A stretch of 64,000 nt of DNA from Plasmodiophora brassicae (lineage: Eukaryota). Where the stretch lies: assembly GCA_036867785.1 (NCBI GenBank), contig CP145423.1, forward strand, positions 682,001 to 746,000. The letters are read 5' to 3'. Below, piece by piece: positions 13,201 to 64,000 of the stretch; within the stretch, counting starts at the first letter, position 1, and each line of letters begins with the position of its first letter. Below the pieces are notes generated by a model. It saw only the letters and a list, made by a program, of their open reading frames with translations. It was not told where the DNA came from and did no database searches. A program made the translations under genes and the position numbers.

Positions 13201-15585
13201 GATGATGTCGATGTGAGGCATCGGCCATGCAATGCGTTCGGTCTGTTTGTTGACGGCTTCATTGATGTCGACGGTCAGCCGATGGCCGCGAACCTCCGTG
13301 TCCTTCTTGTCGACGACCAGACACGGCGACGCGTACCTGCTGTGCGGATTGCGGTACACAAAATCGTTTTCCGCCAAGGTTCCTACGTGATCATCCATGA
13401 ATTTTTGATGTTCGAGGGTATACCTTCGTGTTCGGCAACGAACAGGACGAGCATCTGCTTTGAAGTGTAGTTTCAGTGGACTTACTTTCGCAGGTGGATC
13501 ACGGCCAAGCTTCGTTCGCCATATGTCTTTGTGTCGATTGACAGTTGTGCGTAGACGCGGGACTTGATCGTTAGGGAAACCGGAGTCAGTTGCACGTTGT
13601 ATCATCCGGTCTATTGCCCTGTCCACGTCTGTATCGGAGTGTTCTCCGATTTCGACATCATAGTCGTCACCCGGATCATTGGTGTCCAATTGGGGCTCAT
13701 GATCGCGAGTTGTTCCACTTACCTCCGGGTGTCTTACCGCTCTCATCGTGATCCCTTGACCACCTGGGGCGTGACGTTCCGGGGTCGGATCCGCTTCGAT
13801 GATGATAGGACCATTTGCCTCGATTAACATCTCCTTCAGTTGTGTAGCTGGATTGATACCCAACGCGTCCAGTTCCGGGGCTCCTAAAAGGACAATGTCA
13901 TCAGATAGGTCTTCGCGACATACGTTGATTTCCCGCCCGCGTAGATGTGCAGGTTTGCCATGCGAAGGTGGGACAATGGTGATGTCCACGATCGCTGTGG
14001 CGACAATTGTTGTCGTAGCCCCGATCGTTGCAAGTTTCGCCTCCGTTGGATGGTCGAACACTTTGACTGGGACATGCTGGATGGCTTGAATCCGTAGCAG
14101 TTGCGATTGCGAAATGACGGTCTTCGTCGCACCACTATCGGCTTCGAATGGAAGGTCGAGCGAGTTCTGGAAGCGAAGTCTCATAGGGGACGGTGTTGAC
14201 GGCGACGGCGGGCCCATGCGCTTTGCCGTGTCTGCGTTGCCCTTACTCTCCTCCTTCTCTTTGCGCTCTTTCTGGAACTTTTCAATGGCAGCTTTGCGTT
14301 CTCCTTGAGTTGCCTTCGGGCACACTTGGACCCAGTGCTGCTCCTTGCAGATTAGGCAACCTGCCTTTGGAGGATCCTTACCTTCGAAACGTTTTCGGAT
14401 GTGCTCGGGGATGTCCCTCGATTCGTCTTTCGTTTGCGATGTGGACGATTGAGCTGTCTTCAGTCCGATCGGATTTGTCGGATGCTTGCCGCCATTCCTA
14501 TTCGGAGCAACAACGTCCTTACCTTTCTTACCTGCAGGTGGGGACATGGTCTGCGCTGGAGACTTCTTCTTCTCAGCTTGCAGCCGGAAGTGTTTGTCCT
14601 GCTCTTTGGCAAGACGGTCGACGAGGTCGAAGAATTTGAGCTCGTCCTTCTCAGCGTCCCTGCACCCTCCGAACTCGATCGCGCGTTCGACTAGAACCGC
14701 AAGGTCAGTGGGACGGATACCTCCGCGTAATACCTTGATCTTGCGCTTGGTTCCTTTCGTTCCTTTGGCGTATGTGTCTTGTAGCCCATAGTCGTCGATT
14801 AGCTCATCGAACTTGGCGAAGAAAGACGTGACACGTTCCTCAATACTCTTGATTGACAGGTTCATGACCACTGTCTTCGTGAGAAGCGCCTTGATGTCTG
14901 TCGAACTCTCGACATCAGCCTCCCTGCGTTGGACTGACCTCAAGTAGCTCATGATGTCGCCATCCGTGATCGTGCTGGCGGGTTGACGTAGGCGATATTT
15001 CGACATCCCTCTGAGGACGTCCTCGGTAATGCATGACTTCACCGTTGGCGGATGAATATCCTCCTTGTAGATCAGTCGGCGCTCGTTAACGATCTCGACG
15101 TGTTTCCTATATTTCTTGAGGAAATCGTTAATTCCGTCCTTGGCCGTAAGGCTCAGGGTACGTAGGATGGGCGGTTTCAAAGGCATAAAGATCGGGCTCT
15201 TACCGTGCAGGTTTGTTGACTGAAGCCCTCGATCGATTTCGTCATCTGTCGACGATTCATGCTCCTTGGCCTCGGCGTCGGAGTTGGTCCTGGCGTCGTC
15301 CTCCATCTGTAGACGAACGGGCGCTCTGCGGCCACCTCCTGCCATTAAGTGAGTTCGTTTGCTTGGGGCTCTTTGCGCAAGAAGCTTCTGTGCTAACGCC
15401 GCCGCTGCCCACTACGGGGGCGGTCGGTCGCAAGAGTCGGCGCCTGGTGATATAACGAACTGATGTATTTGGACAGGATCGTCACAGCAAGGGCCGCTGC
15501 GGGGTCGAGTACGGTCATGATCATGTGACCGGGTGGCAGCAGCATCTGAGCAGCATCATCTGAGTACTGGTACTCTGGATGAACA
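10250..15585 (-). mobile_element. Intact Gypsy family D, identical 197-bp LTRs (10250-10446, 15389-15585), TSD ATGAC
   Basis: LTRs read identical; TG..CA ends; ATGAC at 10245-10249 and 15586-15590; PPT-like GGGGAG before the 3' LTR. Confidence 0.97.
10456..15345 (-). CDS. gag-pol: Uninterrupted 1629-aa Gag-Pol polyprotein with chromodomain
   Basis: CLICKEQHWVQVC knuckle, ADSGA protease, LLWIDDILG RT, FTDHRNL RNase H, H..H..CLHC plus DDE integrase, LINWIGFDATDNSWEP chromodomain. Confidence 0.95.
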   Translation of the reverse strand: MAGGGRRAPVRLQMEDDARTNSDAEAKEHESSTDDEIDRGLQSTNLHGKSPIFMPLKPPILRTLSLTAKDGINDFLKKYRKHVEIVNERRLIYKEDIHPPTVKSCITEDVLRGMSKYRLRQPASTITDGDIMSYLRSVQRREADVESSTDIKALLTKTVVMNLSIKSIEERVTSFFAKFDELIDDYGLQDTYAKGTKGTKRKIKVLRGGIRPTDLAVLVERAIEFGGCRDAEKDELKFFDLVDRLAKEQDKHFRLQAEKKKSPAQTMSPPAGKKGKDVVAPNRNGGKHPTNPIGLKTAQSSTSQTKDESRDIPEHIRKRFEGKDPPKAGCLICKEQHWVQVCPKATQGERKAAIEKFQKERKEKEESKGNADTAKRMGPPSPSTPSPMRLRFQNSLDLPFEADSGATKTVISQSQLLRIQAIQHVPVKVFDHPTEAKLATIGATTTIVATAIVDITIVPPSHGKPAHLRGREINVCREDLSDDIVLLGAPELDALGINPATQLKEMLIEANGPIIIEADPTPERHAPGGQGITMRAVRHPEVSGTTRDHEPQLDTNDPGDDYDVEIGEHSDTDVDRAIDRMIQRATDSGFPNDQVPRLRTTVNRHKDIWRTKLGRDPPAKVSPLKLHFKADARPVRCRTRRYTLEHQKFMDDHVGTLAENDFVYRNPHSRYASPCLVVDKKDTEVRGHRLTVDINEAVNKQTERIAWPMPHIDIILTYLRSATIFMLFDAFKGYWQFPLHPDSQEACSFMTHIATFTPRRIIQGIADCVFAFQAGMQQVLGKLLYICALLWIDDILGYVSGFGAYMDTLESLLNAFDEFGVKLNPDRCQLYLTSVTWCGRVISADGVSFDRSYLNALHDLSTPITAADLQQFLSGLNWVRSVIPQFAAHVHPLQDLLLSASRSVSSLKKSHLRRVRLADIGWTTDHLTSFNSLKHRLSEAMTLAHPKDEWIMCLFPDASDRFWSVFLSQIPPEDIDLPYGEQHHEPLSFISGTFRGSQLKWATIEKEAYAIIEGCYRLRHFISMSKLALRIFTDHRNLVFILNPASVARISRTTGDRLERWRLQIIDLDFHIEHIAGEDNVWADLATRWGVALQPLSSFSPPSFRSIRHMAINLDFDDYKMTDEFIWPSVDEISNAQTDYIRQHDLSAVSDILQLEGDMSLHLSPESGWRTPDNQLWVPSHALQLRIAVISHMGLSGHQPAASTISSIAQLFWWPDLDSFVRAFVDKCLHCLRNKDSMIPRPFGTAMHADKPNKVIHYDFLFLSKPRPGDSHQLRYVLVLKDDATAFVELIPCQFADHSVVAESLLDWFKRFGIVFQHVSDRGTHFKNAVIAELNSRLHCNHHFTTAYTPWANGTVEVVNKRLLFLLKSLLSELNLPFQDWPYVLPLINMTVNHTVRSSVGYAPVTMFTGLPPSTPISIIFNKRIDAVIDVPLTPDRLKEMTTELIDSLEDMHKEVARTRTHLRDLKQRARRRRRNVREINFTTGDYVLVANHGKHSKSEYNWTGPAQIIDTINDWVYRVRDLLTDHISDVHAQRLMFYADAHLNVTSSLKHNIALTGVAYQVNAVEDIRVNSTSGDTELLINWIGFDATDNSWEPYSVMAADVPDIVRAFLERQAEGDPLCSRLLADF

Positions 15586-15590
15586 ATGAC

Positions 15591-16160
15591 GAGGGTCCGC
15601 ATGAGCGCTTGTAAACCGGATGGGCGCACAGCACCCAGTAGGTACTTGACCAGGTTCTTCCGTCCCTCGCGGGACGTGAAGAGGTCCTGCCACCCGTTGC
15701 GCGCGACCAATTCCTCGTACTGCTGCACGAGGTTCACGACCCTTGCCGCTGGTGTGGTGATGGTCAGCTTCATCGCCAGCTTCCGCATCTCCCGGTCGAT
15801 GTTCGCGTCCGTCGAGCGATCCTGCTCCAGATGCCTCTTCATCCAGTCCATCAGGTCGCTCTCCGTCACCCCCTCGGCGTCCTTGCCGAGTTCCCACTTG
15901 CAGATCGCCCTGAGCAGACCGGGGTCGATCATACTCCTCACTGACCGCGGGATCTGGCCCTTGGCGTTCGGATCGTCCCGGAAGTGATTCCGATACGTCT
16001 TCAGCTCGGCCATGAACGTCGTGACGGCCTTGCGGTCCATGCTCTTCAAGGTCGGCGCCTTGTTCATCTGCAGGACGATCGTTGAGCCTTGCACGCTCTG
16101 TCCTTGTTGTCGATCATCGACGTCATCTTCCAGCAGCATCTCCTGCGCGGTGGCCACCAT
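15591..16160 (-). CDS. gag: Element E gag, N-terminal part
   Basis: Near-identical to 62060-62630. It joins 10249 in frame (…RTLVMKRQTD…) once D is removed. Confidence 0.85.
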
Positions 16161-17149
16161 CGCGTCCTTCTTTGAAACCTTCCCCGAAAGGATGTTCAAG
16201 AGATCTCTGTGACGTCCCAACGGTGATGGTATATCAGCCGTGTAGTATAATCGTCTGTCCCCGACCTGCAGCTCCCACGGACGCCGTGCGGACTCCGTGC
16301 GCACTCCGTGCATGTCCGTCATTCTTAGGGCGGCCTAGCCGGATCACAGCTATTCTTGTCTTATAGCTTGGAGCCGGCACACAGGTGATTCAAAGCAATG
16401 CATGTCAGCTGCGGCGTCGTAAAACAGAACCGAATCGCTTGAGGCTTGACCCTCGCGGCTTCCGTGCGGTTGCCCTCACGGTCAATGACAACTGCACAAT
16501 AGCGATCATACTGCTCTTTCAGCTTCAAGATCGACGTGGAGTCCAACTTCGCGACCCGTGGCAGGATGCTGACATCCGCGTCCTTGACACCAATATGCTC
16601 GTCCGTGCTGGACGTCGTCTCCGATGCCATGGCGCAGCGTCTCGAACGTGGTGCGGACGAAGTCAGACGTGTGGGATCAGACAGAGTGCGCACTGTAGTC
16701 AGTCTCGAGCCAATATCCCAATGAGCTTTATCATCCATCCCATCCACGGCGTCGGCCCTGCCATCACAGTGGAGCTAAATCCTTGCAGGCCCCCTTTTCC
16801 TCTGGACAGCAGGACCCCCTTTTCCTCAGGACAGCGGCAACTTGGGGTCGGGCACGAGACGCTAAAAATAGAGCCCCGCTCTACAGACGAAATCTTTGCA
16901 TAGCGGGGACATAATTTTTGCATGACGGGGAACAAATTGAACGATGACGATTTGTCTGTCTGAAACCGATAGCTGGAGCGTTAGGTGCGTGCGCGTGGCG
17001 GCGACGCAGCGCACAGTGCCATGGGCGCCCGCCGCGTCCCGCAGAACGCACATGTGCGTCGAAGAACTGCTCGACGATGTCTTTAGTCAGTCGTGAACAA
17101 CCAAACACATCACGAAGATGCTGGCAGCGGCTCGTGTAAACTCCTCATA

Positions 17150-17500: not shown

Positions 17501-20315
17501 TTCCGCGGGAGAAGAGACTACGAAATCGCTCTGGAACAGATTCCACAGCGACTTCGTCGGCCGACAGTCGGGCAGTACTTCGACCCGGCTAGGTGCTGTA
17601 CAATATCTATCTTCCAGAAACGGCATTGGCCATGCAGTTGCCTCACCCATGGCATTGACCTCTCGTAAGTCAACACACATTCTCCATCCTCTGTTGCCAG
17701 GCTTTCGTACAACTGTGACGTCCTTAAAGCTTCGAGACGTTCGCGGTGAGAAGCTAACTGAGCTCCCTGGCTGTCTGCTGATAGCCTCTCAGTCTATGAC
17801 GTCAACTGTCTCTCTCTGGTGACTATTGTCAGTCTGGTTTATTTCGGGCCGTCTGGCCTCACGCCCTCCACTGTGTCTCCGGAGTCCGCGACGGGCTCCG
17901 GAAGTCCGCGGTCTATTCTTGGAAGCACACGACTGGTCTGACGGGAACTGCGCATGTCCGGCAAGTGATCGGCGGTCTCGGCGGCCGTGCCAGGACAGGG
18001 GGTGATGACCGTGAACAACATCATAGGTGCTGCTATGCTGTACATATGATACACTCCCCTCCTCAAAATAACGTCCCTCTTCGTGCTGTGACCTTGGAGC
18101 TGGCATGAATGGCATCTTGTCATACGGAATAAACGTCTGTTGCATTGTTTCTGTTATGGGTGAACATTTGGAGAAAAATTATGTGGGAATCATTCTTCCG
18201 TAGGTTATGTTTTCCCCAGTCCGTCACACACTCTTTTGGGCGGCGGACCTCGACGTCGCCGTGATGTCGATCGGCCCTGAGACCATGACTCCTGTCAAGG
18301 TACTGCGAGGCTTGCCTTCTGGCTCACTCGCTAAACCCACTAAAACCCATCTTGTTCAGTGACCATAACTGTGCGATGTCTAGTTGCGACGTCGCCTCTT
18401 GGTCGAGGCGCTTGCCTGACCTGGCGTCTTTCGCTTGACTGATTTCTTTGGGACCTTCGTCTTCTGCAATGGCTCTGGCAGCATTTTCTGTACCTCTTCT
18501 GCCAATGCATGACTACTGTGTCCATTGATGAATTCTTGCACCATCTTGGGCTGATCTTCAATGATGACACTTGCTGGTTCCCATGTGGATTCTTCATCAC
18601 TGAAACCACGCCATCGTATCCGTAATTCTATGGTCTGATCACGATTCTTGCGTGCATCCATTATTTCTTGGATTTCCCATGTGGCGTTATCATGGGCTAT
18701 TTGTTCTTTGAGTTCCTCTGTGATGTTGTGCTTCTGATCGCAGTAGAATTGGAGTCTACTCCCGTGTACAATGTGATGGTCGCCATTCACTAGATCTTCG
18801 ACCTCGAAGATGTAGTTTGAGTGAACGTCTGTGACACGGTATGGCCCTCGCCATTTCAGAAATAGTTTCTCTCCAGCTCTGAGCGTTTCTGCTCGCAGAA
18901 CAAAATCTCCTTGATAGACATTCGGTGGCTTCCGATTTCCCCTTTTCTCGCCGTTGCGCTCTCTGGCGCGCGCTGAGATCTGCTACTTCTTTGTGCATCT
19001 CATTCATCGCGGCTATAAGCTTATCGGTGAGAGCTTGGATTCTCTCAGAAGTGAGTTGGGTAACACTGACTTGTGTTTCCCTTGTAGGGTTCATGCATAC
19101 TGCTTCTAGTGGGTCATCATCTGGTTCCAGCCCACTATGAACCTGCACAGGCGCTCGCCCTCCCAGTCTCTGCTGTGGCCGATGGTTGAGCACGTGCTCT
19201 ACCACCTTGAGCAGCCATGGCCATTCTTCCTTCTGCCATCTTAGGTCGGAACAAATGGCGCGGAAGAGTGCCAACACATGCTTGTTGACGACTGCAACTG
19301 TGTCGTTGGGATAATGTATGTACGCCGTTGTCCAATGTTGCTTAACATTGCAAAGCTTATTATACTCCCTTGTAACCTCAGACATGAAATATGATGCCTG
19401 GTCGGAGACAATGAATTCTGGTGTTCCCGACTTGGATCTCCACTCCATCAGTGCCTGTACCGTTGTCAAACTGTCTGGTACGACTGTTGGCACGAGGTGT
19501 ACAAGTCCCGAGAGGTCATCTCGAAGTACGAGAATCCATTTGAAATCATGTCCAGCCTCTTCCATTGACGGCATCATGTACAGGTAGTCCATGTGGAGTA
19601 CCTGTCCACGTCTGGTTGCATGGCACGCGTGACCTAATGGTCTGGGACACACCTCTCCACCTCTTGTGGGTCTACAGTGTAGGCAGCCTGTGGCTATGCG
19701 CTTAATGTCCTCTGATATGCCGTTCCAGATAAACTTCTTCCTTAGAAGTTGCGTCATGTCATTGATGCTGCGATGCGCGAAGCCTGCAGCGTGCGCAATG
19801 ACTGTTAGCCTGACCCTGAGCTCCACATCTTCTGATGGGATGACTATTTGGCCTCTGCTATTAACTAGCAGGCCTGCGTCGTTCTTCCTCAGGTTATTCT
19901 GCTTGTCGTTCGTCATGAACCTTAATTGCCTCTCTCTGATTTCTTCCTCAGTTGGCCAGACAAGCTTCTCGTCTAACATGGGTTGGACTCGGAATTTGTC
20001 AGCGAGTTGCCCCCAGCGGTTGTGGATTTCCGGATAACTCACTTGATCCTCATTCTCCCGCCCACTATTGTTGGGTACACCGTGTTCATGGATTTCCGGA
20101 TAACTCACTTGATCCTCATTCCCCATTTCCCCATTCGAAGCTTCCGGATCACTGGCGCGATCCTCATCACTACGAATTCGAAGTATTCGGAAAACGTTTG
20201 TGGCGTCCTCGTACTTACCTGCCCGGTGTCGATTTGGGTTTCCAACTCAGCATCTCTTCTGAGACCACTGTCCACTCCCCATCGTGTTTGCAAATCCGTC
20301 CACACATTCTTCTCC

Positions 20316-20385
20316 TGTAGACCGGACCGCCAACTAGGCCACGAGAGCAGCTGCTCTCGTGGCCTAGTTGGCGGTCCGGTCTACA
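20316..20385. mobile_element. 70-bp perfect palindromic insertion, TGT..ACA ends, 4-bp TSD CTCC
   Basis: 35-bp arm plus its exact reverse complement. Removing it restores IEHIPGE|KNVWTDLQTRWG. Confidence 0.9.
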
Positions 20386-20945
20386 CTCCCCAGGAATATG
20401 TTCGATCGTGAACGTGTACTTCCTCAGCTTCATTCCCCAGCGTTCCAACCGCTCTGCTGCTGGTTGTGTACATTTCTGTGGGTTATATATGTGCATGAGG
20501 TTCCTGTGGTCGGTGTACAGTCTGAATGGTTTTCCCGTTTGTAGGAGATAGTCCAGTTTTTCTACCACGTCCAACAGGGCACTGGCTTCTTTGTCTGGCG
20601 TAGACCAGTTCAATTCTGAGCCTGTGAATTTGTGTCCTGTGAATCCTAGTGGTTGGTGGTTGGCTTCCCACACTGGTTTGTCCTTATCTTCCAATGGGAT
20701 TTGCGTTACCATTCCCGCTCTGTGGAACTTGCTGGCGTCTGCAAACACGCACTGTATCATATCCTTTCTTGGATACGCCAGCTGAGTGTTTCTCCCAATC
20801 AATTCCTTCAGCTCTTCGAATGCCTTAGCATGCAGATCATTCCAGCCATGCCTCTTCAGTCTTATTCCTCCAGCGACGGATTTGGTCCTTCTTGGCTGAT
20901 CCTTCATGGATTTCTCATAGATGTCTTGCAGGGGTAGGACAATCC

Positions 20946-23900
20946 TGTCGAACAACGTATCCACTACGACCAGCAGCACATGCCTGCAGCACGTGAACGC
21001 CGTCACGCACTCCGCGACTCCGTGCCCGCCGGCGTTGGCAACCGTTACACCGTCGGCGACTACGTCGCCACTGTAAAGTCCGCCGCACACGCCGTACGTA
21101 ATACATCCACTTCATTATTGTCCTTCTCAGATTAACAGTCGTATAGGCGCAGGCGCTGAGCCTCTACTCGCCATGGCCGAGCGCCAGGCGACGCCTAACA
21201 CGGATGACGACCCGCTGCGTCATCTGTCGCTCGAGGAGATCGACACCCGAATTGCCGAAGCGGAGGCAACGATCGCTAGGCAGGAGAAGATCGACCGTCT
21301 CCGTGTCCTGCAGCAGCAGCTGGCGCGTCCGACCAGCTGTCCATCGACCCCGGCCATGCCGATCATCGCCGAGGCGCACAGCCGAAGCGACGCAGGCCGA
21401 CTGCCCATGCCCAAGTTCGACGGTACTCCCGACTCGTTCACGTCCTGGGTTCAGACAGCTGCACTCTGGTTTCGCAATCGTGGGTACGCGGACGTCATCG
21501 GGATCAACGAAGATGGCTCGCCGACTGCGACAACCGGTACGGCACACGACCCAGCTCTCGAGGCAGCCGCGCGCGAGATTCTACTCGTCCACATGCTGGA
21601 CCACAAGATCGCGTCCGCATTGTCTTTGTTTCAGGCAGGCTCGGCTGCCAAGTGCTGGCGCGTGCTGTTCCAGGCGTACAGCCCGTCGTCGCTGGCATCG
21701 GTCGTGCGCGCCGTCCGCGACCTCGTCACGGTCCAGCACATGCCCGGCGAGTCGGTCGCCACGTACGCCGCCCGAGTTCAAGCAGCGGCTCATCGCGTCC
21801 GGTCGACGGTACCGACCGAGATGCTGTCCCTCACCGACGCATTGGTCGCCGTCCTCATCTTGGCCAACGCATCATCCGATCTCGACGCCGTCGTCGCTGG
21901 CCTGCACAATCGTGCTCTGGACACGCTGCCCAGTGTCTCCGAGGTCGTCGGGTCGTTGACAAGCGAGGAGATCAGGGTCCAAGACGTGCGGGACCGACAC
22001 GACGCGTTCCAAACGGCCAACCGCTCCAGTTGCGCCACATCGACGCGTCCCCGTGGACCACGACGCAACGAGTCCTGCGTCTTCCATCCCGGATCCAAGC
22101 ACACTAACGGCGAATGCACGCTGCAACGACACATCTGGTACCGCGACAGCAACGCGAAAAGCAATACATCCTCACCAACGTCCAACGAGTATCCAACGTC
22201 TGGCGCTCATCCGATCGATCCGGCGCCCGAGCCGATGCGTGCTTTGTCGGCACGCCACGCCATCGACGTGTACGCGAACTCAGTAGGCCTACTGGACTCA
22301 GCGTGTTCCACGACGATGACGCCCCTGCGCCGACATCTCAGCTGCTATCGCCAAGGCACCGGACCGGAAGTTGAGCTAGCCGATCTGTCGCGTACGACCA
22401 CTTCCGGTCGAGGCGTGACGTCATTCGGCATGGATGTCCAGGCGACGAGTATCGATTCGCTGCACGTTCCCCGACTTGGCCAAGCGCTAGTATCAGTTGG
22501 CCAGCTCACCAGATCAGGTCACAAGATCGTGTTCGACGGCGATACCGCGAAGATCTACTCGGGGGCCAACTGGACGGCGCCCGTCGGTCAGCCAGTGGCC
22601 GTCAGTCAACGAGGACACGATAACCTGTACCGGATTCCATTATCCGCTCCAACCTCCGCGCCCGGCACACTTCACTCTGCCCGAGTCTGCTCCTTGATCG
22701 CATCCAGCGTCTCATGCCGCGTCGCTAAGGTCACCGCCGCAGCTCCAGCTGTCTGGCACGCTCGAACCGGCCACCTGGGTTACGGCAACCTGCGCATCCT
22801 GCACAAACGTTGTCGTGGCATGAAGTTCGACGGGCCAATCCCGAGGCCGCAAGATCGATGTCCATGCGCTGCATGTTTACTCGCCAAGGGCAAACGGTCA
22901 TCATTCCCTCCCAGTACGTCGCGCGCGCGTCGTGTTGGCGATCTCGTCCATAGCGATCTGTCCGGACGGTGGCCTGTCGTCGGTGTCGGCGGCTTTGAGT
23001 ACTACCAGACCATGCTGGACGATTCCTCTCGGTACCTGTCCGTCTATCTGCTACGTCGCAAATCGGAGGCGCTCGACGTCATCAAGCACTATGACGCGCG
23101 TCTTCGCAACCAGGAAGGACGTGGTATCCGGACGTTCCAGACCGACGGTGGCGGCGAGTACAACTCCAAGGCGTGCGTCCTGTTCTACAACGAGTCCGGC
23201 ATCCTGCACCGCAAATCTGTCCCGTACACGCCCGAGCAGAACGGCCGCGCTGAAAGCGTCAACCACACGCTCTGCGGTATCGAAAGCTCAATCCGGTGCC
23301 ACTCTCGCATGCCTGACTCCACGTGGCCCTGGTCGCTGTCCTACTCTGCGATACTGTACAACATCCACCCCAGATCAGTCCTTCCCGGGCGTCGCACATC
23401 GTTCGAGGCTGCTCGTCGCGCCCTACCTAACATCTCGGCCCTTCGTGTCTACGGTTGCGATGCCTATGCCATGCGACCGCATCCAGCCACGAAGAAGCCG
23501 AGCAAGTTGGAGCCTCGTCGTGTTCGCGCTGTGTTTATCGGTTTCACGCCCGGCATGAAGGCTTGGCGGTTCTACGACGTGGACCGGGAAGACACGTTCG
23601 AGAGCACGACTGCCGAGTTCCTGGAGACCTCGTTCACATTCGGCTTTGGAAGATCCAGCCCTGCTAGTTCATCATCAGCGCCACCGTCCAGTCCCGAGTC
23701 GAGCTCTGCGCCGAACGTTGACACGATCGTCCCGACGCCCGTCTCTTCCGACGCCGTCATGGCACCTCTACCATCGACGTCAGCATCCTCTCTCGCAGCA
23801 TCCCCTCCCGAGCCTCCGTCACCTGCCGCTGCGTCATCGCCTTCCGAGATCGTCCGACCGTCGCGCTCACCGTCTCCTGATGACGTATCCACCGACGAAG

Positions 23901-43700: not shown

Positions 43701-43711
43701 CAGTGCCAGTC

Positions 43712-50990: not shown

Positions 50991-53900
50991 TAAGGAAGAC
51001 AATAGCGAAGTGACGTGTATTACGTACGGCGTTTGCGCAACGGCACGGTGGACGTTACAGTGGCGACGTAGTCGCCGACGACGTAACGGCTGCCAACGGC
51101 GGCGAGCGCGGAGTTTCGGAGTGCGTGACGGCGTGCTGCAGGCATGTGCTGCTGGTTGTACTGGACATGTTGTTTGACACGCCCCCTCCAGCAGCACACG
51201 CCCTGGTACCGGTGTCGATGATGCCGGCCAGGATCAGGTTCGCGTGATAAGAAGTGCTGAGGGCGGGCTTCGTCAGGTAGTCGGCGGCCATCTCGGCGGA
51301 CGGGCACTTGTGGACCATAATCAGACCGGCCTCGACGGCCTCTCTGGTGTAGTGGAACTGGACCTCGATATCCTTCGTTCGATCGTCCATCCGACGGTAG
51401 CCAGACCAGGCCTTCGCGCCTTGGTTGTCTTCGTGTACGATCGTCGGGCCGGGACGCGGGAAGCCGATCTCCGCCAGGAACGACCGGATCCAGGCCAGCT
51501 GACGGGTAACAGCGCAGAGCGATTTGATCTCAGCGTGTGTTGACGACAGACTAACCTTAACGGCGCCTAGGTCCTGGCGTCGCGACTGCCAGTGCACGGG
51601 ACCGCCGGCCAGCAGAATGATATGACCGGAACGGGAACGTCGCGTGTCCGGATCCGAGGCCCAGTCGGCATCGGCGTAAGCGACCAGGCGATCCTCGAGT
51701 TGCCGTTCGTATCGAATGCCGTGCGTCTTCGTGCCGGCGAGGTACTTGAGGACGCGTTGCCCCGCACGCCAATGCTGTATACCAGGATTCGACGAGAACT
51801 GGGCCAGCACGTTGGTGATATACGCGATGTCGGGACGGCACCGATGGGCGAGCCATGTCAGACATCCGATCAGCTTCAGGTAAGGCTTGTTCGTCATTTC
51901 GTCCCGTTCGATGTCCGTCTGTGGACTCATCGATTTCGTCAGGTGAACGCCAGGTTGATGTGGCGTGTCGACCGGGTGACAATGTGACATGTTGAAGTCG
52001 CTCAACACCTTGTCGATGTACTCGGCCTGGTCGAGCATGATGGCGCCGGTGGCAGGTTCGCGACGGATGCGCATGCCGAGCAGCGTCGATGGTTCGCCCT
52101 GATCCGTGATCTCGGCCATCGTGGCGAGCTTCTCGAGGACGGCCTCTGCGAAATCGACGTCGTTGTACGCCAGCAGGCCGTCATCGGTGTGCACCGACAT
52201 GACCATGAACTTGCCATCGCGATCATATCGAAGACGCACGGGTCCGCGATGATCGGTTCGAAGCCCAGGGACAGCAGCATCGAGCGAAGCGTCTTGTACC
52301 ACCGTTCGGCACCTTGCTTCGTACCGTATAGGGCCTTGCGTAGTTGGCGAACGCGATATGGGACGTTGTTATCAGTAAACCCATCGGGCTGGCGCATGTA
52401 GACGTCGTGGAGCATATCGGCGTTGAGGTAGGCGGCCACCCAATCAACCTGTCGAAGATGCAGCCCGTGTTGGGCTGCGAGCGCAAGGATGATGAGGAAT
52501 GCGGTGGCGCGAGCTGTCGGTGCGAATGTGTCGTCAAAGTCAATGCCGGGGCGCTGTCGGAAGCCCTGAGCGCAGAGACGAGCGCTGAACTTACGGATGC
52601 CACCGTCGCCACTGAGCGCTGACTTGACCCGGAACACCCACTTGGACCCGACAGCGATCTTACCTTTGGGGAGATCAACGAGCGGGCCGAATGTGTCCTT
52701 GGAATCGAGCGTCCCCATCTGCGAGACGGCGGCGTCCCACCAGTGGCCGGCGAACGGCGATGACAATGCCTCGGCCATCGAGTCGGGTACAGGGATGTCG
52801 GTCGCTTTAAGGCTCGACAGGTCCGGTCGCGGTAGACGGGCTGGATCGATCGGCGCGGGTACTCTAGCACGACATGCCTTGGCGGCGGCGCCGCGAGCGG
52901 GATTGCGGTTGGACCGTATGGCTTGATCGATCAGACGTCGCTCCTCGACCTGTTGCCAATGGCGGATTTGTCGGCGTGATTGACGAGGAGGGCGCTGCGT
53001 GATGAAGACGATAACGAAGTGATTTATTCCACTGACATCGGCGCGAGACGATGGCGACGTAACGCAGTGTAACAGGGCTTGCCAAAGCCGTTACCTGCAA
53101 CGGCGACGGTGGCGGAGCCTCTGTTGTGGACGTGACACAGCCGCGCACAGTCACAGCGTCATCGTGTGCCGGTGGTAGGACATGGTCCTCGACACTGCGT
53201 CGGTGGCGTTAGGGTCGGACTCTGGAACCAGGCGTCGACTGTCGAGGACCACCGTGTTGACGAACGATTGGCCGCCTCCGGCGCCTTCCACCATTCACCC
53301 GGCGGTTGACGACGACGACTCGATCGGCGGGGACGTGGCACTTCGATGGCATTGGGATCAACATCAGCTTCGGCGGCATTATCGTGGACGACGGGATCGG
53401 CAGCTTCGTTGGGAGAGTCGTTGCTGGACGCCGAATCTTCGTAGTCGGGATCATCTTCAGCGTCATCATCGTCTTCGTCGGTGGATACGTCGTCTATGCG
53501 GGCATTCAGAACGTCGGCTGACCGAGAAATGTGGCAGGCGCCGTCAGGCGCACGGGCGTCCGCGTTCTGGGACGCAGGGTCAGGAGACGGTGAACGTGAC
53601 GGTCGGACAATCTCGGAAGGCGATGACGCAGCGGGAAGTGAAGGAGGCTCGGGAGGGGCTGTTGCGATAGAGGATGCTAACGTCGATGGTAGAGGTGCCA
53701 TGATGGCGTCGGAAGAGATGGGCGTCGGGACGATCGTGTCAACGTTCGGCGCAGGGCTCGACTCGGGACTGGATGGTGGCGCTGATGATGAACTGGCCGA
53801 GGCCGATCTTCCAAAACCGAATGTGAACGAGTTCTCCAGGAATTCGGCAGTCGTGCTCTCGAACGTGTCTTCGCGGTCCACGTCGTAGAACCGCCACGCC

Positions 53901-56526
53901 TTCATGCCGGGCGTGAAACCGATGAACACAGCGCGAACACGACGAGGCTCCAACTTGCTCGGCTTCTTCGTGGCTGGATGTGGTCGCATGGCATAGGCAT
54001 CGCAACCGTAGACACGAAGGGCCGAGATGTTAGGTAGGGCGCGACGAGCTGCCTCGAACGATGTGCGACGTCCGGGAAGGACGGATCTCGGGTGGATGTT
54101 GTACAGGACGGCAGAGTAGGACAGCGGCCAGGGCCACGTGGAGTCGGGCATGTGGGCATGACACCGGATCGATAGCTCGATGCAACAGAGCGTGTAATTG
54201 ACGCTCTCGGCGCGGCCTATCTGTTCCGGTGTGTACGGGACCGACTTGCGGTGCAGGATGCCGGACGTGCTGTAGAACAGGACGCATGCCTTCGAGTTGA
54301 ACTCGCCGCCACCGTCGGTCTGGAAGTCCCCGATACCTCGCCCTTCCTGATTGCGAAGGCGCGCGTCGTAGTTCTTAATGACATCGAGGGCGTCCGATTT
54401 GCGGCGAAGCAGGTAGACCGTCAGGTAGCGCGTGGAGTCGTCCAGCATCGTCTGGTAGTACTCGAAGCCGCCAATGCCGAAAACGGGCCACCGACCGGAT
54501 AAGTCGCTGTGCACGAGATCGCCGACACGAAGTGCCCGCGACTTACTCGGAGGAAATGAGGAACGCTTACCTTTGACGAGGAGGCAGGCTTCGCATGGGC
54601 ACCGGTCCGAACGCTTGGGAATGGGGCCGTCGAATTTCATGCCACGACAGCGGTTCCGCAGGATGTTCAGATTGCCATAGCCGAGATGGCCGGTTCGTGC
54701 GTGCCACAGATCGGGAGATGCAACGGTGACCTTTTCGGCGCGACAGGCGATGTCGGATACGATCAGGGAACAGGCTGGTACAGTCGGTTGCGTGTTGTTG
54801 GTGGATGGAGCTGATAGTGCGATCCGGTACAGGTTGTCTTGTCCACGGGTGCTGATCGCCACTGGCTGCCCGGTGGGTGCCGTCCAGCTGTCCTTCGAGT
54901 AGATGGTCGCGGTGGCGCCGTCGAATACGATCTTGTGGCCTGATCGGGTGAGTTGTCCGACTGAAACAAGCGCTTGACCAAGTCGTGGGACGTGCAGTGA
55001 GTCGATACTCATCGCCTGGGCATCCTTGCCGAATGACATCACGCCCCGACCGGACGTAGTCGTTCGCGACAAATCAGCTAGTTCGACTTCTGGTCCAGAG
55101 ACGCGTCGATAACGGCTGAGATGCTGGCGCAGGGGTGTCATCGTTGTGGAACAGGCCGAGTCCAATAGTCCCATTGAGCTCGCGCTCGCGTCGATGGAGT
55201 GGCGTGCCGACAATGCACGCGTTGGCTCGGATGCCGGATCTGTCGGGAGAGCGCCAGACGATGGATACTCGTGGGACGTTGGTGACGATGTATTGCTGTT
55301 GTTGTTGTTGTTGTTGTCTCGATGCCAGATGTGCCGCTGCAGGCTGCATTCGCCATTCGTATGCTTCGATCCCGGATGAAAGACGCAGGACTCGTTACGT
55401 CGAGGTCCACGGGTACGTGTCGACGTATTGCAGCTGGATCGGTTGGCCGTCTGGAACGATTCTTGTCGGTCCCGCACGTCTCGGATGCGAATCTCTTCGC
55501 TCGTCAGTGACGCAACGACCTCGGAGACACTGGGCAGCGTGTCCAGTGCACGGTTGTGCAGGCCGGCGACGACCGCGTCCAGGTCGGATGATGCATTGGC
55601 CAGAATGAGGACGGCAACCAGAGCGTCAGTAAGGGACAGCATTTCGGTCGGTACCGTTGCGCGGACGCGATGAGCTGCTGCTTGAACTCTGGCCGCGTAA
55701 GTGGCGACTGATTCGCCGGGCGTGTGCTGGATCGTGACGAGGTCGCGGATGGCGCGCACGACCGATGCCAGCGACGACGGGCTGTACGCCTGGAACAGCA
55801 CGCGCCAGCACTTGGCAGCCGATCCTGCTTGAAACAAGGACAACGCAGACGCGATCTTGTGATCCAGCATGTGGACGAGTAGAATCTCGCGCGCGGCCGC
55901 CTCCAGAGCTGGGTCGTCCGTCGTACCGGTTGTAGCGGTCGGCGAGCCATCTTCGTTGATCCCGATGACGTTCGCGTATCCACGGTTGCGGAGCCAGAGG
56001 GCCGCGGTCTGAATCCAGGACGTGAACGAGTCTGGCGTTCCATCGAACTTGGGCAGCGGTAGCCGACCTGCGTCGCTTCGGGTGTGCGCCTCGGCGACCA
56101 TCGGCACGGACGGGATCGGTGGACAGCTGGGCGGGCGCGCCAGCTGCTGCTGCAGGATTCGAAGACGGTCGATCTTCTCCTGCCTTGCGACCTTTGCCTC
56201 CGCTTCGGCTAGACGGATGTCGATCTCGTCGATCGTCAGGTGATTCAACGGGTCGTCATCCGCGTTCGGCGTCGGCGTCGCCTGGCGCTCGGCCATGACG
56301 AGTAGAGGTAAAGCGCCTGCGCCTACGACTGTTAATCTAAGGAAGACAATAGCGAAGTGAAGTGTATTACGTACGGCGTTTGCGCAACGGCACGGTGGAC
56401 GTTACAGTGGCGACGTAGTCGCCGACGACGTAACGGCTGCCAACGGCGGCGAGCGCGGAGTTTCGGAGTGCGTGACGGCGTGCTGCAGGCATGTGCTGCT
56501 GGGTGTACTGGACATGTTGTTTGACA
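50991..56526 (-). mobile_element. Full-length Copia subfamily 2; 189-bp LTRs 50991-51179 and 56338-56526; TSD GGCAC; ORF from 56296 disrupted by a solo LTR and a frameshift near 52230
   Basis: GGCAC at 50986-50990 and 56527-56531. All Copia domains are present, and I see two differences between the LTRs. Confidence 0.95.
53001..53194 (-). mobile_element. Solo LTR of the TRIM family (diverged), TSD CTGCG
   Basis: Similar to 44175-44370; CTGCG on both flanks. Confidence 0.9.
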
Positions 56527-57490
56527 GGCACATCCCATACAAGACAGGTGTGCTTAGGAATCTGCAACTTCCCAGCACGTGTCTGCAGCGACAAGTCCAC
56601 TTTGATTTCGTGGGTGGCTTTCCCAATTGCTTGCTCACTGTCGGCTAGAATCAGTGTCACTGGTGCTTCCAATTCTCTCATGTCTGTGTTTGGATCCAAT
56701 TCGACAATTCGCATGGCCATCGACATCGGCATCAGCGTGCGCTCAGCTCCACTGTCAAGGATGCCCGGCCACTTGCCGCCTGTTTTTCCTACGCCAACTA
56801 CAATCTGATTGTCGCCATGACGTTCAGCGCTACTTTCTAATCGGGTGTCTACTTTCGACACTCGCATGTAGCCGCCACCCTGTGGTTTATTGCTGCTGGG
56901 GCGCGCCTCCTTGCGCGCTTCGCGCGTCTCCCGCAGCTTCTTGACGATGCGCTCCTTCTGGTCGTCTGAGGCTTTGGGACACTGTGTGAGACGGTGTTCC
57001 CCCTTGCAGAACCAGCATTGGGGCACTTCACCTTCCTCTTTGCCACGCTTCAGCTTCTTGAGGGCTTGTTCCTCCGCCGGCGTGGGCTGCTCCTTCTCCT
57101 TCCTCTTCTTGGGGATGGTGAGGGCGCTGCGTGGCGCGATCGCAGGCTGTCGCGACGCACCATCGAGACGGGACATGCTCTGAGCACGCCGCACCTCGTC
57201 GAAAGCAATAGCTTTCTCCTCAAGACGCTTGAAGAACGCGTCCGGATCCGACTTGAGGTGCTTTTCAGTCGTTTCCAGCAGCTCCTTCATGCGCGTCTTG
57301 AGCTCAGGTGTCACGACTGAGTCGTGTTGGCGACTCAGCCGGCACCAAATTGGGCTCCTTCGTAGCGCACTAGGTACAATAAACGTCCACGGCGCGGACC
57401 GACCTCAGTCGGTCAATCCGTGTGGTTGACACATCTTGCTCTGTCGTCACATTTTGACCGACTAACCTTCTGTCGTCGTCTTGTCTCGAC

Positions 57491-57680
57491 TCGTATCGTA
57501 TTGTGCCGTATCGTATCGTATTGTGCCGTATCGTATCGTATTGTGCCGTATCGTATCGTATTGTGCCGTATCGTATCGTATCGTATCGTATTGTGCCGTA
57601 TCGTATCGTTTTGTGCCGTATCGTATCGTATTGTGCCGTATCGTACCGTGCCGTACCGTTTCTATCGTTCGTATTGTATT
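57491..57680. repeat. Tandem 20-bp repeat (TATCGTATCGTATTGTGCCG) built from pentamers, in the T2 5' UTR
   Basis: Direct reading. Confidence 0.92.
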
Positions 57681-57686
57681 GCATTC

Positions 57687-60239
57687 ATGGCAGGAGGCGA
57701 TGGGCCGATTCCGTCATGGGCGGACGACGTCCCATCGTCCGCGAATCCGGATGTTGCGGGTGTGTCGGATTTTGCTCTCGGTCCCCTGTCGCAGCTGCAC
57801 TTCGCGCGGGGTGTTCTGCCACTGGCGAATCATCTCCCTGCACGACCGCTCACCCCGCCTTCGCTCAATAGTACCGCTGCCGATTGGCCCGACGACTCTC
57901 TGTCCTCTTCGGACCGTCACTCACCGCCTGCCTTATCGTCCCTACACGTTTCTGCCGCCTCGACGTCTCTGCAGGACCCCGGCGGCGCGCCTCGGAATGA
58001 CCCCGTCTCCTCGACGTCGCAGCATATTGGCCTTTCGTCCGTTGGGGCTCGAGTGCCGGCGCCACGGGTGTCTCCGGGCCCACCCTTCATGTCTATTGTT
58101 GTCCAGTCACAAGACATTCCGCGTTTTTCGGGAAGCGATGGTCTGTCGACGACGCGCTGGTTGACTGCGTTCTCTCGGATCACCCAGACGTCGTTAACGT
58201 CTACAAGTCCTCTATCCGGCGATGTGCAATGTGTCTTAACGACAGCCTTGCAAGGTCAGGCCCTTGAGACTTACCTCGACTTGCCTGCGGACGCGTCTAT
58301 GGCGGACGTAGCGTCCGTCCTGCTCCATGACTTCCCGGGCCCTTCGTTCAAGCAGGTTGAAGCGAAGTTTGACAACCTGAAGCAGACTGCAGGTGTCGCT
58401 CACCACGCACTGGCATTCCAACGCTTGTACAAGGACCTTCAACGACTTGACCCATTGTACAGACTCAATCCGGCCCGCTTGGCGGAAAAGTTCCGCCTCT
58501 CGTTGAACCCTGCGCTCTCCGAAGCGCTGTTCTTCTACAACTTCAGAGACTACGACAAAATTCTCGAGATGGCGGCTCATCTTGAGTCGAAATACCCAAT
58601 CGCCGCCATCAACGCTGGCGGTGATGCAAGGACACAACCCCTGGCTTGCCACTATTGTCGCGAAGTTGGGCATTTTATTGCGTCCTGCCCGAAGAGGCCA
58701 CCGTGCCCGCACTGTCGTAAGGTTGGCCACCGCTCATCGCTGTGTCCCGAGCGGTCCGGCAACCCTCTCCACGTCACTGATCTGTTCCTTATGACGTCTC
58801 CCTCAATACCGCATCTGTTGGTATCTGTATGCCTCGTTATCGGCTCACGCCGTGTCAACACTTTCGCCCTGTTAGACTGTGGAGCGACTTCCAACTTCAT
58901 CGACTGGTCGTTCTGTCGTCACCACGAAATACCGGTTCGCTCTAAATCGCGTGCCATTCCTGTTCGCGTCATCGACGGGCGACACCTGTCTCCAGTAACT
59001 CAGGAAACCGTCCCGCTACGTGCTACCGTCGACGGATGTTTCGACAGCGACGTCGTCCTGAACATGATCCACTCGCCTCAACACCCTGTCATTCTTGGGC
59101 TGCCTTGGTTGGCGGATACAAACCCAGATATCGATTGGCGTCAGCGCCGCCTACAGCGCCGCGGAGATACCCTCGTGGGGATGTCACGCCGTACAGGAGA
59201 CGTCCATGAGTCTGGGTCCTTCGTCTCTTCGGCGGGACCATTTGCAACAGTAAAGCGCTGGGATAGTCTCTCAGCTGGGGTCTCACCTCCTGCACGAAGC
59301 GTTCCTGCGCCTGCATCTGCCATCCCTTCAGCTGAATCACTTGAAACGTTGCCGCTTACATCCGTGTTTGTCGACGGCAAGCTGGCTTCCGTAGCTAACG
59401 ACGACCACCCGGAGTGCCACATTGCCATTGCTGCGATCGACGACAGGCCGAGCCCTTCCGCTTTCGATTATGGTAGCATCCCGGGGGTCGCCGCCTTCAA
59501 TGATACTGTTGCCCCCAGCCGCACCGATCTCTTATCATTGCCCCGTTCAGGCTCCGAGTCCACGCCCCTTATGTCCTCCTTCCGGAACTGGGGCCCCGTT
59601 CGACGAGGGGTGAGACGGCCTCTCCCGCCGCCCCCGCCGCCTCCCTCCAATGATGGCTTCCGAGACGGCCACAGCCTCAATCTTCTGATGTTCGCAACCT
59701 TTGTCGCCCTGACCTGGATCCTAGTTGGGTGGCCGTACTTTCCAATAGCACAGCTGTGTACGAGCGCCTCTGCGGAGCCCCCGCCCTTGAATTCGCGCGC
59801 CGAGTCCTTCTTTGCACCTTTTGCTACGCTAGAGGATGACCAGGCCTCATCAACCTCGATCGCGTTTCTCAACCCCGATCTCATGTTCCTGGACGCCGCC
59901 GCACGTGCGTTTGCCCACAAGCTACATCGACGACAGATTCGTTCACTCCAATTCCTTAGCGAAATTGATTTCGTTCATTGGACACCTGACGCCCTGACTC
60001 GTCGACTGGAGTACAGACTGTCGCCTAATGATGAAGCAGTTCTTGCTAGGCCACACCAAATGCTTCCACCCAGACAAGCCCGCAGCCTTTTCCCGGTGCG
60101 GCTAAAAGGGGACTATTATGTCACGACTGAGTCGTGTTGGCGACTCAGCCGGCACCAAATTGGGCTCCTTCGTAGCGCACTAGGTACAATAAACGTCCAC
60201 GGCGCGGACCGACCTCAGTCGGTCAATCCGTGTGGTTGA
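57687..60239 (+). CDS. Fused Gag-protease-spacer ORF (~850 aa) ending in the 3' LTR
   Basis: MAGGDG start as in T1 gag, two CCHC knuckles, LLDCGATSNF in the same frame, and an RNase H remnant HKLHRRQIR..PDALTRR. Confidence 0.75.
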   Translation: MAGGDGPIPSWADDVPSSANPDVAGVSDFALGPLSQLHFARGVLPLANHLPARPLTPPSLNSTAADWPDDSLSSSDRHSPPALSSLHVSAASTSLQDPGGAPRNDPVSSTSQHIGLSSVGARVPAPRVSPGPPFMSIVVQSQDIPRFSGSDGLSTTRWLTAFSRITQTSLTSTSPLSGDVQCVLTTALQGQALETYLDLPADASMADVASVLLHDFPGPSFKQVEAKFDNLKQTAGVAHHALAFQRLYKDLQRLDPLYRLNPARLAEKFRLSLNPALSEALFFYNFRDYDKILEMAAHLESKYPIAAINAGGDARTQPLACHYCREVGHFIASCPKRPPCPHCRKVGHRSSLCPERSGNPLHVTDLFLMTSPSIPHLLVSVCLVIGSRRVNTFALLDCGATSNFIDWSFCRHHEIPVRSKSRAIPVRVIDGRHLSPVTQETVPLRATVDGCFDSDVVLNMIHSPQHPVILGLPWLADTNPDIDWRQRRLQRRGDTLVGMSRRTGDVHESGSFVSSAGPFATVKRWDSLSAGVSPPARSVPAPASAIPSAESLETLPLTSVFVDGKLASVANDDHPECHIAIAAIDDRPSPSAFDYGSIPGVAAFNDTVAPSRTDLLSLPRSGSESTPLMSSFRNWGPVRRGVRRPLPPPPPPPSNDGFRDGHSLNLLMFATFVALTWILVGWPYFPIAQLCTSASAEPPPLNSRAESFFAPFATLEDDQASSTSIAFLNPDLMFLDAAARAFAHKLHRRQIRSLQFLSEIDFVHWTPDALTRRLEYRLSPNDEAVLARPHQMLPPRQARSLFPVRLKGDYYVTTESCWRLSRHQIGLLRSALGTINVHGADRPQSVNPCG

Positions 60240-61028
60240 CACATCTTGCTCTGTCGTCACATCAGGGGTAGATTCCCTGCATGAGGATGTCGACCTTCTT
60301 CTTCAGGCCCTTCTCCCCCGAGAAGATCTCCCCGAGGTTACCGTCCTTGACGATCTTCACCAGCTGCCGACCATAATCGAGCACCCGCGCCTGGATGCTC
60401 TTGTTCATGCGCAGAGAGTCGAAGTAGGTCCAGTATGATCCGCTTTGAGCAGGCGCCTGGGCCATCTGCCAGCCACGTAGCATTCGCTCGATAACGTCAT
60501 CGGGAACGTCTTCCGAGGTCCAGTGAGGTTCACCCGCGCTGCGTAGGAGAACTGGTAGCAGATCCTCGTCGATCATTTCCCGAAGCGGTGCACGACTCCG
60601 GAGTACGCCCAATCTGTTCAGGTACTCGGTGTGTCGCTTCAGAGCATCAAACCACTTATTGATGCTCTTATCATCACACAGCCTGAGTTCAGGGGCCTTG
60701 GCCGCCTTGTCCACCTTGGCTATGCTGGCGATGCGGGCTGCGTCGACAGCGCTGTTGCCGTCTGGCAGTCCCGACTGTTCACCCGGGTATTCGTAGACCG
60801 ACTGGTCTTCGTCACCGCTCTCGACCACCGGCTGCAGCGCGTCTAGCCGCGCTGTAACCTCAGTCAAGTCCTCGTCGATCATCGATACCGATTCGCGCGC
60901 CGTCCCTGCAGCCATCGACGGTCGTACGTGACTACAGTGATCACTGTGTCGTATTCCGGCTAGTCCGGGAGTCCGAGCCAGCCTTGTCTATGGCATGAGC
61001 CCTAATACATGCCACACGAGGCCCCCAG

Positions 61029-61835: not shown

Positions 61836-64000
61836 TGTGCCGGCTCCAAGCTATAAGACAAGAATAGCTGTGATCCGGCTAGGCCGCCCTAAGAATGACG
61901 GACATGCACGGAGTGCGCACGGAGTCCGCACGGCGTCCGTGGGAGCTGCAGGTCGAGGACACAGACGATTATACTACACGGCTGATATACCATCACCGTT
62001 GGGACGTCACAGAGATCTCTTGAACATCCTTTCGGGGAAGGTTTCAAAGAAGGACGCGATGGTGGCCACCGCGCAGGAGATGCTGATGGAAGACGACGTC
62101 GATGATCGACAACAAGGACAGAGCGTGCAAGGCTCAACGATCGTCCTGCAGATGAACAAGGCGCCGACCTTGAAAAGCATGGACCGCAAGGCCGTCACGA
62201 CGTTCATGGCCGAGCTGAAGACGTATCGGAATCACTTCCGGGACGATCCGAACGCCAAGGGCCAGATCCCGCGGTCAGTGAGGAGTATGATCGACCCCGG
62301 TCTGCTCAGGGCGATCTGCAAGTGGGAACTCGGCAAGGACGCCGAGGGGGTGACGGAGAGCGACCTGATGGACTGGATGAAGAGGCATCTGGAGCAGGAT
62401 CGCTCGACGGACGCGAACATCGACCGGGAGATGCGGAAGCTGGCGATGAAGCTGACCATCACCACACCGGCGGCAAGGGTCGTGAACCTCGTGCAGCAGT
62501 ACGAGGAATTGGTCGCGCGCAACGGGTGGCAGGACCTCTTCACGTCCCGGGAGGGACGGAAGAACCTGGTCAAGTACCTACTGGGTGCTGTGCGCCCATC
62601 CGGCTTGCAAGCGCTCATGCGGACCCTCGTCATGAAGCGCCAGACCGATCTCCAGAAGGACCCTTTGGAATTCTATCGGGTGCTGAAGGAACGGGCTGCA
62701 TCGTATGAGGAGACGATGTTGTACATGGAGCCGGGACGTGAGGATGGCAAGGGGAAGGGAAAGGCCAAACCCACCCCGAAGAAGCGAGGGGCGCGATGGA
62801 GGCCGGGACACGAAACGACACCGGAAGGACCTGCGATGCTTCAACTGTGAGGAGGTTGGACATCCAGCGTTTCGTTGCCCGAAGAAGCCTACCAAGAAGC
62901 AGGTCGCAGACCTGCTGAAGGATCGCCGCAAGGTGCCAACGGGAAGGGATGGACCCCGTAAGGCCAAATCTGATAAAGATGACGACCTGTCAGAGTACCC
63001 ATGGCTTCCAGTGGTAGGAAGGGTGTCGGAGGAGGCGCGGAGGACAGGGGACCAAATAGTCGTCCGTGTAAACGGACATGAGGAAGACTACGTTGGGATC
63101 CTGGACAGTGGAGCGACATCGGTGGACGTTCTGATGCCATTGACCATAGCGCGCGAGCTGATGGAACGGGACCCATTGTTAACAATGGAGAACCTCCAGA
63201 AGCCGGAAACGTTCTGTCTGGTAGACAGAGAAACGAAGCACACAGCCTACCATGTGATGATACTGGATCTGGGACTGACGACGACGGCAGGCGAACTGAT
63301 CACTCGCCGGCGCCGATGCCTTGTATGGGATATTCCTGAAAAGGAAATCATCCTAGGGGAGAGGCTGTTGGACGACTTGGGTATCCACCCAAAGAAGGCC
63401 CTGGACGTACTCATTTAGAGCACTCCGAAGAAGGGGAATGACGTCATGGATGAAGTGCACGATATGGCAAACGAGGTGCCACCTCTCTGGGAAGGGGAGG
63501 AAGAGGAAACAGAGGATGTGAGGATCGGAACCGATTCCACAGACTCCCTGGAAAGGGAGATGGACGGGATGGTCGAGCGCGCATTGAGGAATGGCCTACC
63601 GCAAGCGATGGTGAAATCGCTTCGGAAACTCGTCAGAAGATATAGGGACGTTTGGCGTATGAGCATCGGACCTGATGGTCCAGCCAGGGTTACACCATTT
63701 GTCACGGAGCTGAAACCGGATGCGGAACCTTACAGGTGCCGAGCCAGAAAGTACAGTATGGAGGACAGTGCTTTCATGGAGGAATTCGTCGCCCAATTGA
63801 AGAAGTATGGCATCGTTTTTGAAAAGTACAACGCGAAGTGGGCTTCACCGGTGGTGGTGGTGACGAAGCCAGGGGGCGGTAAGCGGTTCTGTGTTGATCT
63901 CAGAGCTGTTAATGCCAAATGTGTCGCCGTGGCGTGGCCAATGCCACATCAGGAGGCGATACTGAGGAACCTGGCAGGCTCGAGGTTCTGGTTTAAGCTA
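61836..64000 (+). mobile_element. Second Gypsy E copy: 5' LTR 61836-62011, gag/protease/RT start with frameshifts; continues beyond the window
   Basis: Near-identical to the reverse complement of 16381-15591 and 10249-8860; frameshifts near 62795 and 63415. Confidence 0.92.

Follow-up and report, generated by a model that had tools for sequence, protein, structure and literature searches.

Perfect palindromes at the primer position of Gypsy chromoviruses in Plasmodiophora brassicae and its surroundings in sequence space: a candidate site for priming between two RNA copies

Priming of reverse transcription in long terminal repeat (LTR) retrotransposons is thought to be settled and to rely on transfer RNA (tRNA) 3' ends, tRNA halves, or the self-primer of Tf1. 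None of these settled modes appears to fit a lineage of Gypsy elements known from oomycetes, from the clubroot pathogen and from many environmental contigs, several members of which lie in a 64,000-nt stretch of Plasmodiophora brassicae DNA (contig CP145423.1, positions 682,001 to 746,000; hereafter the window, that is, the whole stretch analysed). In this large group, the position of the tRNA primer is occupied by a perfect palindrome of 10-16 bases, an anatomy which suggests that two RNA copies may prime each other.

Nested retrotransposons and their palindromes

The window is a stack of nested LTR retrotransposons. The palindrome-bearing elements, with their target-site duplications (TSDs), are arranged as follows, in window coordinates:

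10250-15585, minus strand: element D, an intact W-type chromovirus with LTRs at 10250-10446 and 15389-15585
15380-15389, minus strand: D palindrome AGAAGCTTCT, with 15389 being the final A of the 5' LTR
5780-16381, minus strand: element E1, with LTRs at 5780-5953 and 16208-16381, D nested within it, and a 4-bp TSD
16199-16208, minus strand: E1 palindrome AGAGATCTCT
61836-62011, plus strand: 5' LTR of element E2, followed by the palindrome AGAGATCTCT at 62011-62020; the element continues beyond the window end
34625-50673, plus strand: element A, with its 5' LTR at 34625-34834, a Copia element nested within it, and a 4-bp TSD
34834-34843, plus strand: A palindrome AGTGCGCACT
16694-16885, minus strand: 5' LTR of element A', with the palindrome AGTGCGCACT at 16685-16694
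17714-34449, minus strand: element B, with the TSD GTTGT and a 5' LTR interrupted by another element (G1, below)
28296-28305, minus strand: B palindrome AGTGATCACT
60936-60945, minus strand: core of the C palindrome AGTGATCACT, which extends to 14 bp at 60934-60947, with gag to its left

All seven palindromes of the original prediction were found at these positions, and their placement after the 5' LTR holds true in the orientation of each element, D, E1, A', B and C being on the minus strand. Element D has two mutually identical LTRs of 197 nt each, the TSD GTCAT and a single open reading frame (ORF) of 1629 amino acids (aa; 10456-15345) coding for reverse transcriptase (RT), RNase H, integrase and a chromodomain; Pfam recognises RVT_1, RT_RNaseH, Integrase_H2C2, rve and Chromo in Gypsy order, and the polyprotein is 100% identical to a protein listed by NCBI under Plasmodiophora brassicae. 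Both D and E1 have the domain order of chromoviruses, namely protease, RT, RNase H and integrase with a C-terminal chromodomain, and their relatives carry PF00385. The attribution of the RT motif WIDD to families A-E holds for A, B, D and E, while C has no RT inside the window. A single contig from an RNA library (15272-15450) crosses the site of D and extends to LTR nt 136, an extent that leaves the start of the transcript unfixed; carried-over DNA is a possible source of this contig. Element D looks recently active, as judged from the identical LTRs, the intact ORF, several insertion sites across public runs, and the RNA contig bridging the site.

The first base of the palindrome was expected to be the last A of the terminal CA of the LTR, and this register is established for A, B, D and E by LTR pairs and TSDs. 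The LTR end of A' is defined by a related LTR copy, and the palindrome begins at the last A there too; in C, a putative short LTR lies to the right of the palindrome and is unpaired in the window, and the orientation is based on gag homology. Contigs assembled from public runs branch exactly at 15389/15585 in D and at 16208/16381 in E, so that the LTR limits of these two elements are confirmed by other copies; this check relies on assembled contigs from 4 of 24 public runs, with no joints, starts or ends in them, and uncovered stretches count as no evidence. A and A' are two diverged subfamilies that have retained an identical 10-mer though the flanks on both sides differ. Within D and within E1, the 10-mer is unique, and so is its 8-mer core.

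Perfect palindromes of at least 10 nt are common, with 106 in the 64,000 nt of the window (0.0017 per position) and a frequency of 0.0015-0.0017 per nt, from which about 0.6 would be expected in any 400-nt window, and it could be argued that chance or an artefact of site selection placed them beside the LTRs. However, the exact position is matched in the five LTR-defined families of the window, which bear the four different palindromes originally described, and at 0.0017 per position the chance odds of five such matches are therefore about 1e-14. Together with the screen of relatives described below, this leaves a negligible probability for chance or artefact.

Tests for known primer types

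The window contains elements with a known type of primer, which served as a control:

28454-34253, minus strand: G1, a YLDD chromovirus with a Tf1-type self-primer
57309-60262, plus strand: G2, an internally deleted G1 relative of 2954 bp with identical LTRs and the TSD TCAGG

In line with the absence of a tRNA 3'-end site claimed at the outset, the TGG start that is the criterion of tRNA-primed elements is missing from the first 18 nt after the LTR of A, A', B, D and E; TGG-type sites are present in the control-clade loci L055 and L061. Similarly, the claim that no Tf1-type complement exists was upheld, since no Watson-Crick run of at least 7 nt joins the LTR to the 30 nt downstream of it in A, A', B, D and E, and their best LTR-site duplexes do not surpass in energy those formed with shuffled LTRs (z +0.4 to +1.5). 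In G1 and G2, by the same procedure, the self-primers are detected. Specifically, LTR nt 102-111 of G1 (34143-34152) pair with 34096-34105 over 10 bp, and LTR nt 99-108 of G2 form an equivalent 10-bp duplex; the partner in both elements lies at +3 to +12, after a 2-nt spacer past the CA, and the LTR-site duplex reaches -16.5 kcal/mol (z -2.8 and -2.9). As G1 and G2 share the window with the palindrome families, the host has a Tf1-type self-primer alongside the palindrome type. No tRNA genes were found in the window or in the 87 relative loci introduced below, and Rfam returned no match for the whole window or for 15200-16950, so that the sites coincide with no ribozyme or other RNA family known to it. 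Moreover, the palindrome is absent from the end of the 3' LTR, where integrase acts.

Relatives, covariation and side observations

Relatives were collected as 80 loci from a metagenome scan and 7 from prokaryote assemblies, the latter being mostly eukaryotic contigs binned into metagenome-assembled genomes; no relatives were found in the viral contigs searched. Among the best 120 relatives, 90 of 108 motif matches read W[ILV]DD, in a group that includes oomycetes and many environmental contigs. Three loci with paired LTRs (L006, L014, L033) each have a 12-nt palindrome that starts at the last LTR base, and a fourth (L016) has a 10-nt palindrome offset one base further on. Many other contigs, including circularly permuted assemblies, carry a C-preceded palindrome ahead of the gag ATG, at a distance that ranges from a few nt to about 130 nt. 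Altogether 35 sites were listed, and the palindromes in them, 10-16 nt long, are of 28 distinct sequences (twelve of 10 nt, twelve of 12 nt, two of 14 nt and two of 16 nt), distributed over W-type and related Y-type chromoviruses. Because several bearers have YIDD, YLDD or YVDD, the palindrome is not tied to the W, and the restriction to WIDD-type elements in the original prediction was too narrow. The part of the collection free from selection bias consists of the five window LTRs with defined ends (A, A', B, D, E) and the four LTR-paired loci.

In a quick maximum-likelihood analysis that covered 73 RT-RNase H-integrase rows, one branch splits the palindrome rows from the tRNA- and Tf1-type rows with a support of 99 in the Shimodaira-Hasegawa-like approximate likelihood-ratio test (SH-aLRT), and G1 and G2 are placed across it, opposite the palindrome bearers. 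The enrichment of palindromes in other elements was borne out by a strict automatic screen for a C, then an A-initial perfect palindrome of at least 10 nt, then the ATG of an ORF of at least 150 aa within 130 nt, which matched 17 of 46 loci on the palindrome side (fragments lacking a 5' end included) and 0 of the 31 control-clade loci (Fisher p 4e-5). Three unplaced loci are omitted from this test, one of which, L078, carries a 14-nt site.

The changes between palindromes are compensatory, as originally claimed, with the register fixed at the last A of the LTR: 97% of the cells are paired vs 67% in shuffles, and four of the five palindrome pairs change on both sides, while the outer A...T pair is unchanging in 35/35 sites. 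The site is preceded by C in 32 of 35 cases and followed by the mirrored G in 11 of 35, which is near chance; since the flanking C lacks a mirrored G beyond chance, selection for pairing ends at the last base of the unique 5' region (U5). Counted from the terminal A, the 28 distinct palindromes become longer as their GC content falls (rho -0.67, p 1e-4), and AT-rich palindromes being the longer ones is expected if duplex stability is selected. A constant duplex energy was considered and rejected, the free energy (dG) spanning -4.4 to -16.9 kcal/mol.

These patterns bear on a role at the DNA level, in which a dimeric protein, either integrase or a host factor, would bind the palindrome symmetrically, or the palindrome would assist plus-strand transfer. 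Dimeric DNA-binding proteins typically have sites with perfect dyad symmetry, and the invariance of the outer pair would suit such a site. Conversely, the inner sequence varies freely, unlike the target of one conserved protein, the relation of length to GC content points to pairing energy, and the site is missing from the LTR end at which integrase works, making this role very improbable.

A further alternative is a hairpin that primes in cis, the mode proposed for the fungal GalEa elements of the Copia superfamily; the palindrome would either pair downstream or form a fold of its own, and a cut in the same RNA would supply the 3' end. In GalEa, the sequence CHSeq2 lies 12-41 bp downstream and is able to pair with the palindrome (PMC5445492); here, maximal palindromes of 14-20 nt form weak hairpins (-0.5 to -3.7 kcal/mol), and a bulged near-copy of the B palindrome was seen by eye downstream in B. 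However, an ungapped search for a downstream second arm, in which bulged partners were not systematically covered, beat shuffles at p<0.05 in 0 of 21 sites (lowest p 0.066), and an ATG follows within 11-15 nt in several elements. Moreover, palindromes of 10-12 nt have a hairpin dG of 0.0, and the central 4 nt are always self-complementary, which is needless for a loop. A two-strand duplex is thus favoured, as the centre is self-complementary in all sites and a 10-mer cannot form a hairpin, and priming in cis is regarded as improbable. Homodimer folds of 90-nt contexts use the palindrome fully in 4 of 6 cases, although such folds do not discriminate; no stem is evident beside the palindrome.

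Other observations concern the relatives and the remaining content of the window. The LTR of L016, a W-type element, measures only 59-60 nt (1-60, 6327-6386), leaving scant room for the unique 3', repeat (R) and U5 regions. By eye, the motif AAAGAGC recurs 8-15 nt past the palindrome in D (15345-15379), L001 (150-195) and L004 (120-160); in the last two it occupies the loop closed by a stem of 7 bp, and the arms of this stem are not the same in the two contigs. The loci L081-L086 are eukaryotic Gypsy contigs filed in bacterial metagenome-assembled genomes, which suggests binning contamination.

In addition to G1 and G2, the window holds three Copia elements and several miniature derivatives of 955 bp. 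The Copia elements (20946-25458, 41455-50542, 50990-56529) and the miniatures (36702-37656, 44173-45125, 47204-48161) have a common post-LTR motif, ATTAACAGTCGTA, without TGG, and their LTRs end otherwise than in CA; the motif may represent a site of the half-tRNA type. A perfect palindrome of 70 bp with TG..CA ends and CTCC on either side lies within the pol of B (20316-20385), and each of its halves is identical to the last 33 nt of an LTR-like end, found in full at 2698-2730 and over 23 nt at 2909-2931; from its sequence, it may be a strong-stop DNA of about 35 nt that was copied back on itself and integrated. Lastly, a tandem repeat with a 22-bp unit and about 16 or more units (1239-1768) is contained in a minus-strand ORF of 266 aa without a Pfam match.

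Priming in trans and comparison with known systems

The simplest reading of the palindrome is that of a primer-binding site (PBS), because the conserved pairing element ends exactly at the U5 end, where minus-strand synthesis starts; as a palindrome is its own complement, it would find its partner in the corresponding site of another genomic RNA copy. The proposal that the site pairs sense-to-sense with a second genome and is cut in the manner of Tf1 to yield the primer is, in our judgement, evenly poised between being right and being wrong. According to this proposal, two genomes would anneal sense-to-sense into an RNA duplex of 10-16 bp ending at the last A of U5, and, by analogy with Tf1, the RNase H of the element would cleave one of the two strands where the duplex ends on its 3' side. 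The freed 3'-OH, opposite the last A of U5, would then be extended over the U5-R of the partner to generate minus-strand strong-stop DNA, and the same duplex could double as the dimer linkage. The site of the progeny would be rebuilt from the template and from a copy of the primer, so that a change in one half-site would give mirrored mismatches, whose repair could quickly yield compensated palindromes. In support of the proposal, G1 and G2 place a 10-bp RNA duplex at the same location.

Several points weigh against it. The pairing in trans, the cut and the cutting enzyme are inferred from sequence anatomy, and cutting one genome 3' of the site would remove its own PBS, calling for an asymmetric cut or a sacrificed genome. 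Many metagenome sites were chosen as palindromes upstream of gag, which makes the count of 35 sites and the covariation partly circular; the trend of length with GC content appeared only when counting from the terminal A and is not significant with maximal palindromes (rho -0.22, p 0.33); and certain duplexes made of A and T alone have little stability (-4.4 and -5.0 kcal/mol). In addition, the exclusion of tRNA covers the 3'-end type, with internal fragments of host tRNAs lying outside the comparison.

The last point leads to the alternative that the palindrome is only a signal for dimer linkage, for packaging or for RT loading, and that the primer is an internal host tRNA fragment, another small RNA, a protein, or arises de novo. 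The dimer sites of retroviruses and Ty1 are palindromes, the host tRNA set was outside the comparison, and half-tRNA primers are known in Copia lineages (PMC6317226). A pure dimer signal, however, need not begin at the last base of U5, as the palindrome does in A, A', B, D, E and three of the four LTR-paired loci, and a second site would not fit into L006, L033 and L047, where an ATG lies 11-14 nt past the palindrome. Furthermore, a single host RNA primer is unlikely because four different palindromes occur in one host and 28 across hosts; the four in one host would require as many host RNAs, with a perfect palindrome at the end of each and no two of these alike. On balance, this alternative is judged unlikely, while retaining an appreciable probability.

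Self-priming in trans may be considered beyond the window, as the way in which reverse transcription starts in a large, mostly protist chromovirus lineage and, convergently, in the fungal GalEa Copia elements; on the sequence evidence this wider claim is put forward tentatively, at somewhat less than an even chance. If true, it would constitute a third self-contained priming mode, one that unites dimerisation with priming in a single event and is itself able to renew the palindrome. Element D is compact enough for a heterologous assay. In practical terms, such elements would be overlooked or wrongly classified wherever LTR annotation software requires a tRNA PBS.

Among known systems, the dimer-initiation sites of retroviruses and Ty1 are self-complementary sequences of the 5' leader that pair two genomes, and they lie apart from the tRNA PBS, often in a hairpin loop; unlike them, the palindrome described here occupies the PBS position and adjoins U5. 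Tf1 and sushi elements share with the present ones the chromovirus lineage and, under the mechanism proposed here, a 10-11 bp RNA-RNA duplex at the PBS beside U5 without a host primer. The partner strand of Tf1 is the 5' end of the same RNA, within the LTR, and such a complement is absent in A, A', B, D and E. In an RNA duplex of 11 bp, the cut made by Tf1 RNase H is reported to fall between bases 11 and 12 (PMC7175516). The Skipper chromoviruses of Dictyostelium have a polypyrimidine tract replacing the PBS, with no TGG and no LTR complement, and novel priming is suspected for them (PMC5006619); they have a pyrimidine run where the elements studied here have a palindrome. An unexplained non-canonical site is also present in a Tcn1 element of Selaginella (PMC2864245). 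The literature covered, from which subscription journals were mostly absent, yielded no account of a palindromic site in Gypsy elements.

The closest counterpart is found in another superfamily, and for this reason the description of the palindromes as undescribed was too strong. Donnart et al. (2017) reported fungal GalEa Copia elements without a PBS, which have, directly behind the 5' LTR, a conserved 9-bp sequence that forms a 10-bp palindrome together with the final A of that LTR; its second arm in the "Conserved Hairpin Site" lies 12-41 bp downstream, and the authors state that no known model fits (PMC5445492). The likeness comprises the lack of a tRNA PBS and of an LTR complement, the TG..CA LTRs, the 5-bp TSD, and the palindrome that includes the final LTR A, by which CHSeq1 is defined and which is found in the elements studied here. 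The differences are that GalEa elements are fungal Copia elements, whereas the present chromoviruses belong to Gypsy and come from a rhizarian and from uncultured protists; that a counterpart of the CHSeq2 arm, with its conserved A/A mismatch, was not found by the ungapped search of 21 sites; and that GalEa has two main sequences, compared with 28 of 10-16 nt here. The observation is real and broader than first stated, with a published but unexplained precedent for its layout in Copia, and the recurrence of this layout in an unrelated superfamily, in 28 covarying versions, turns a curiosity of GalEa into a general problem.

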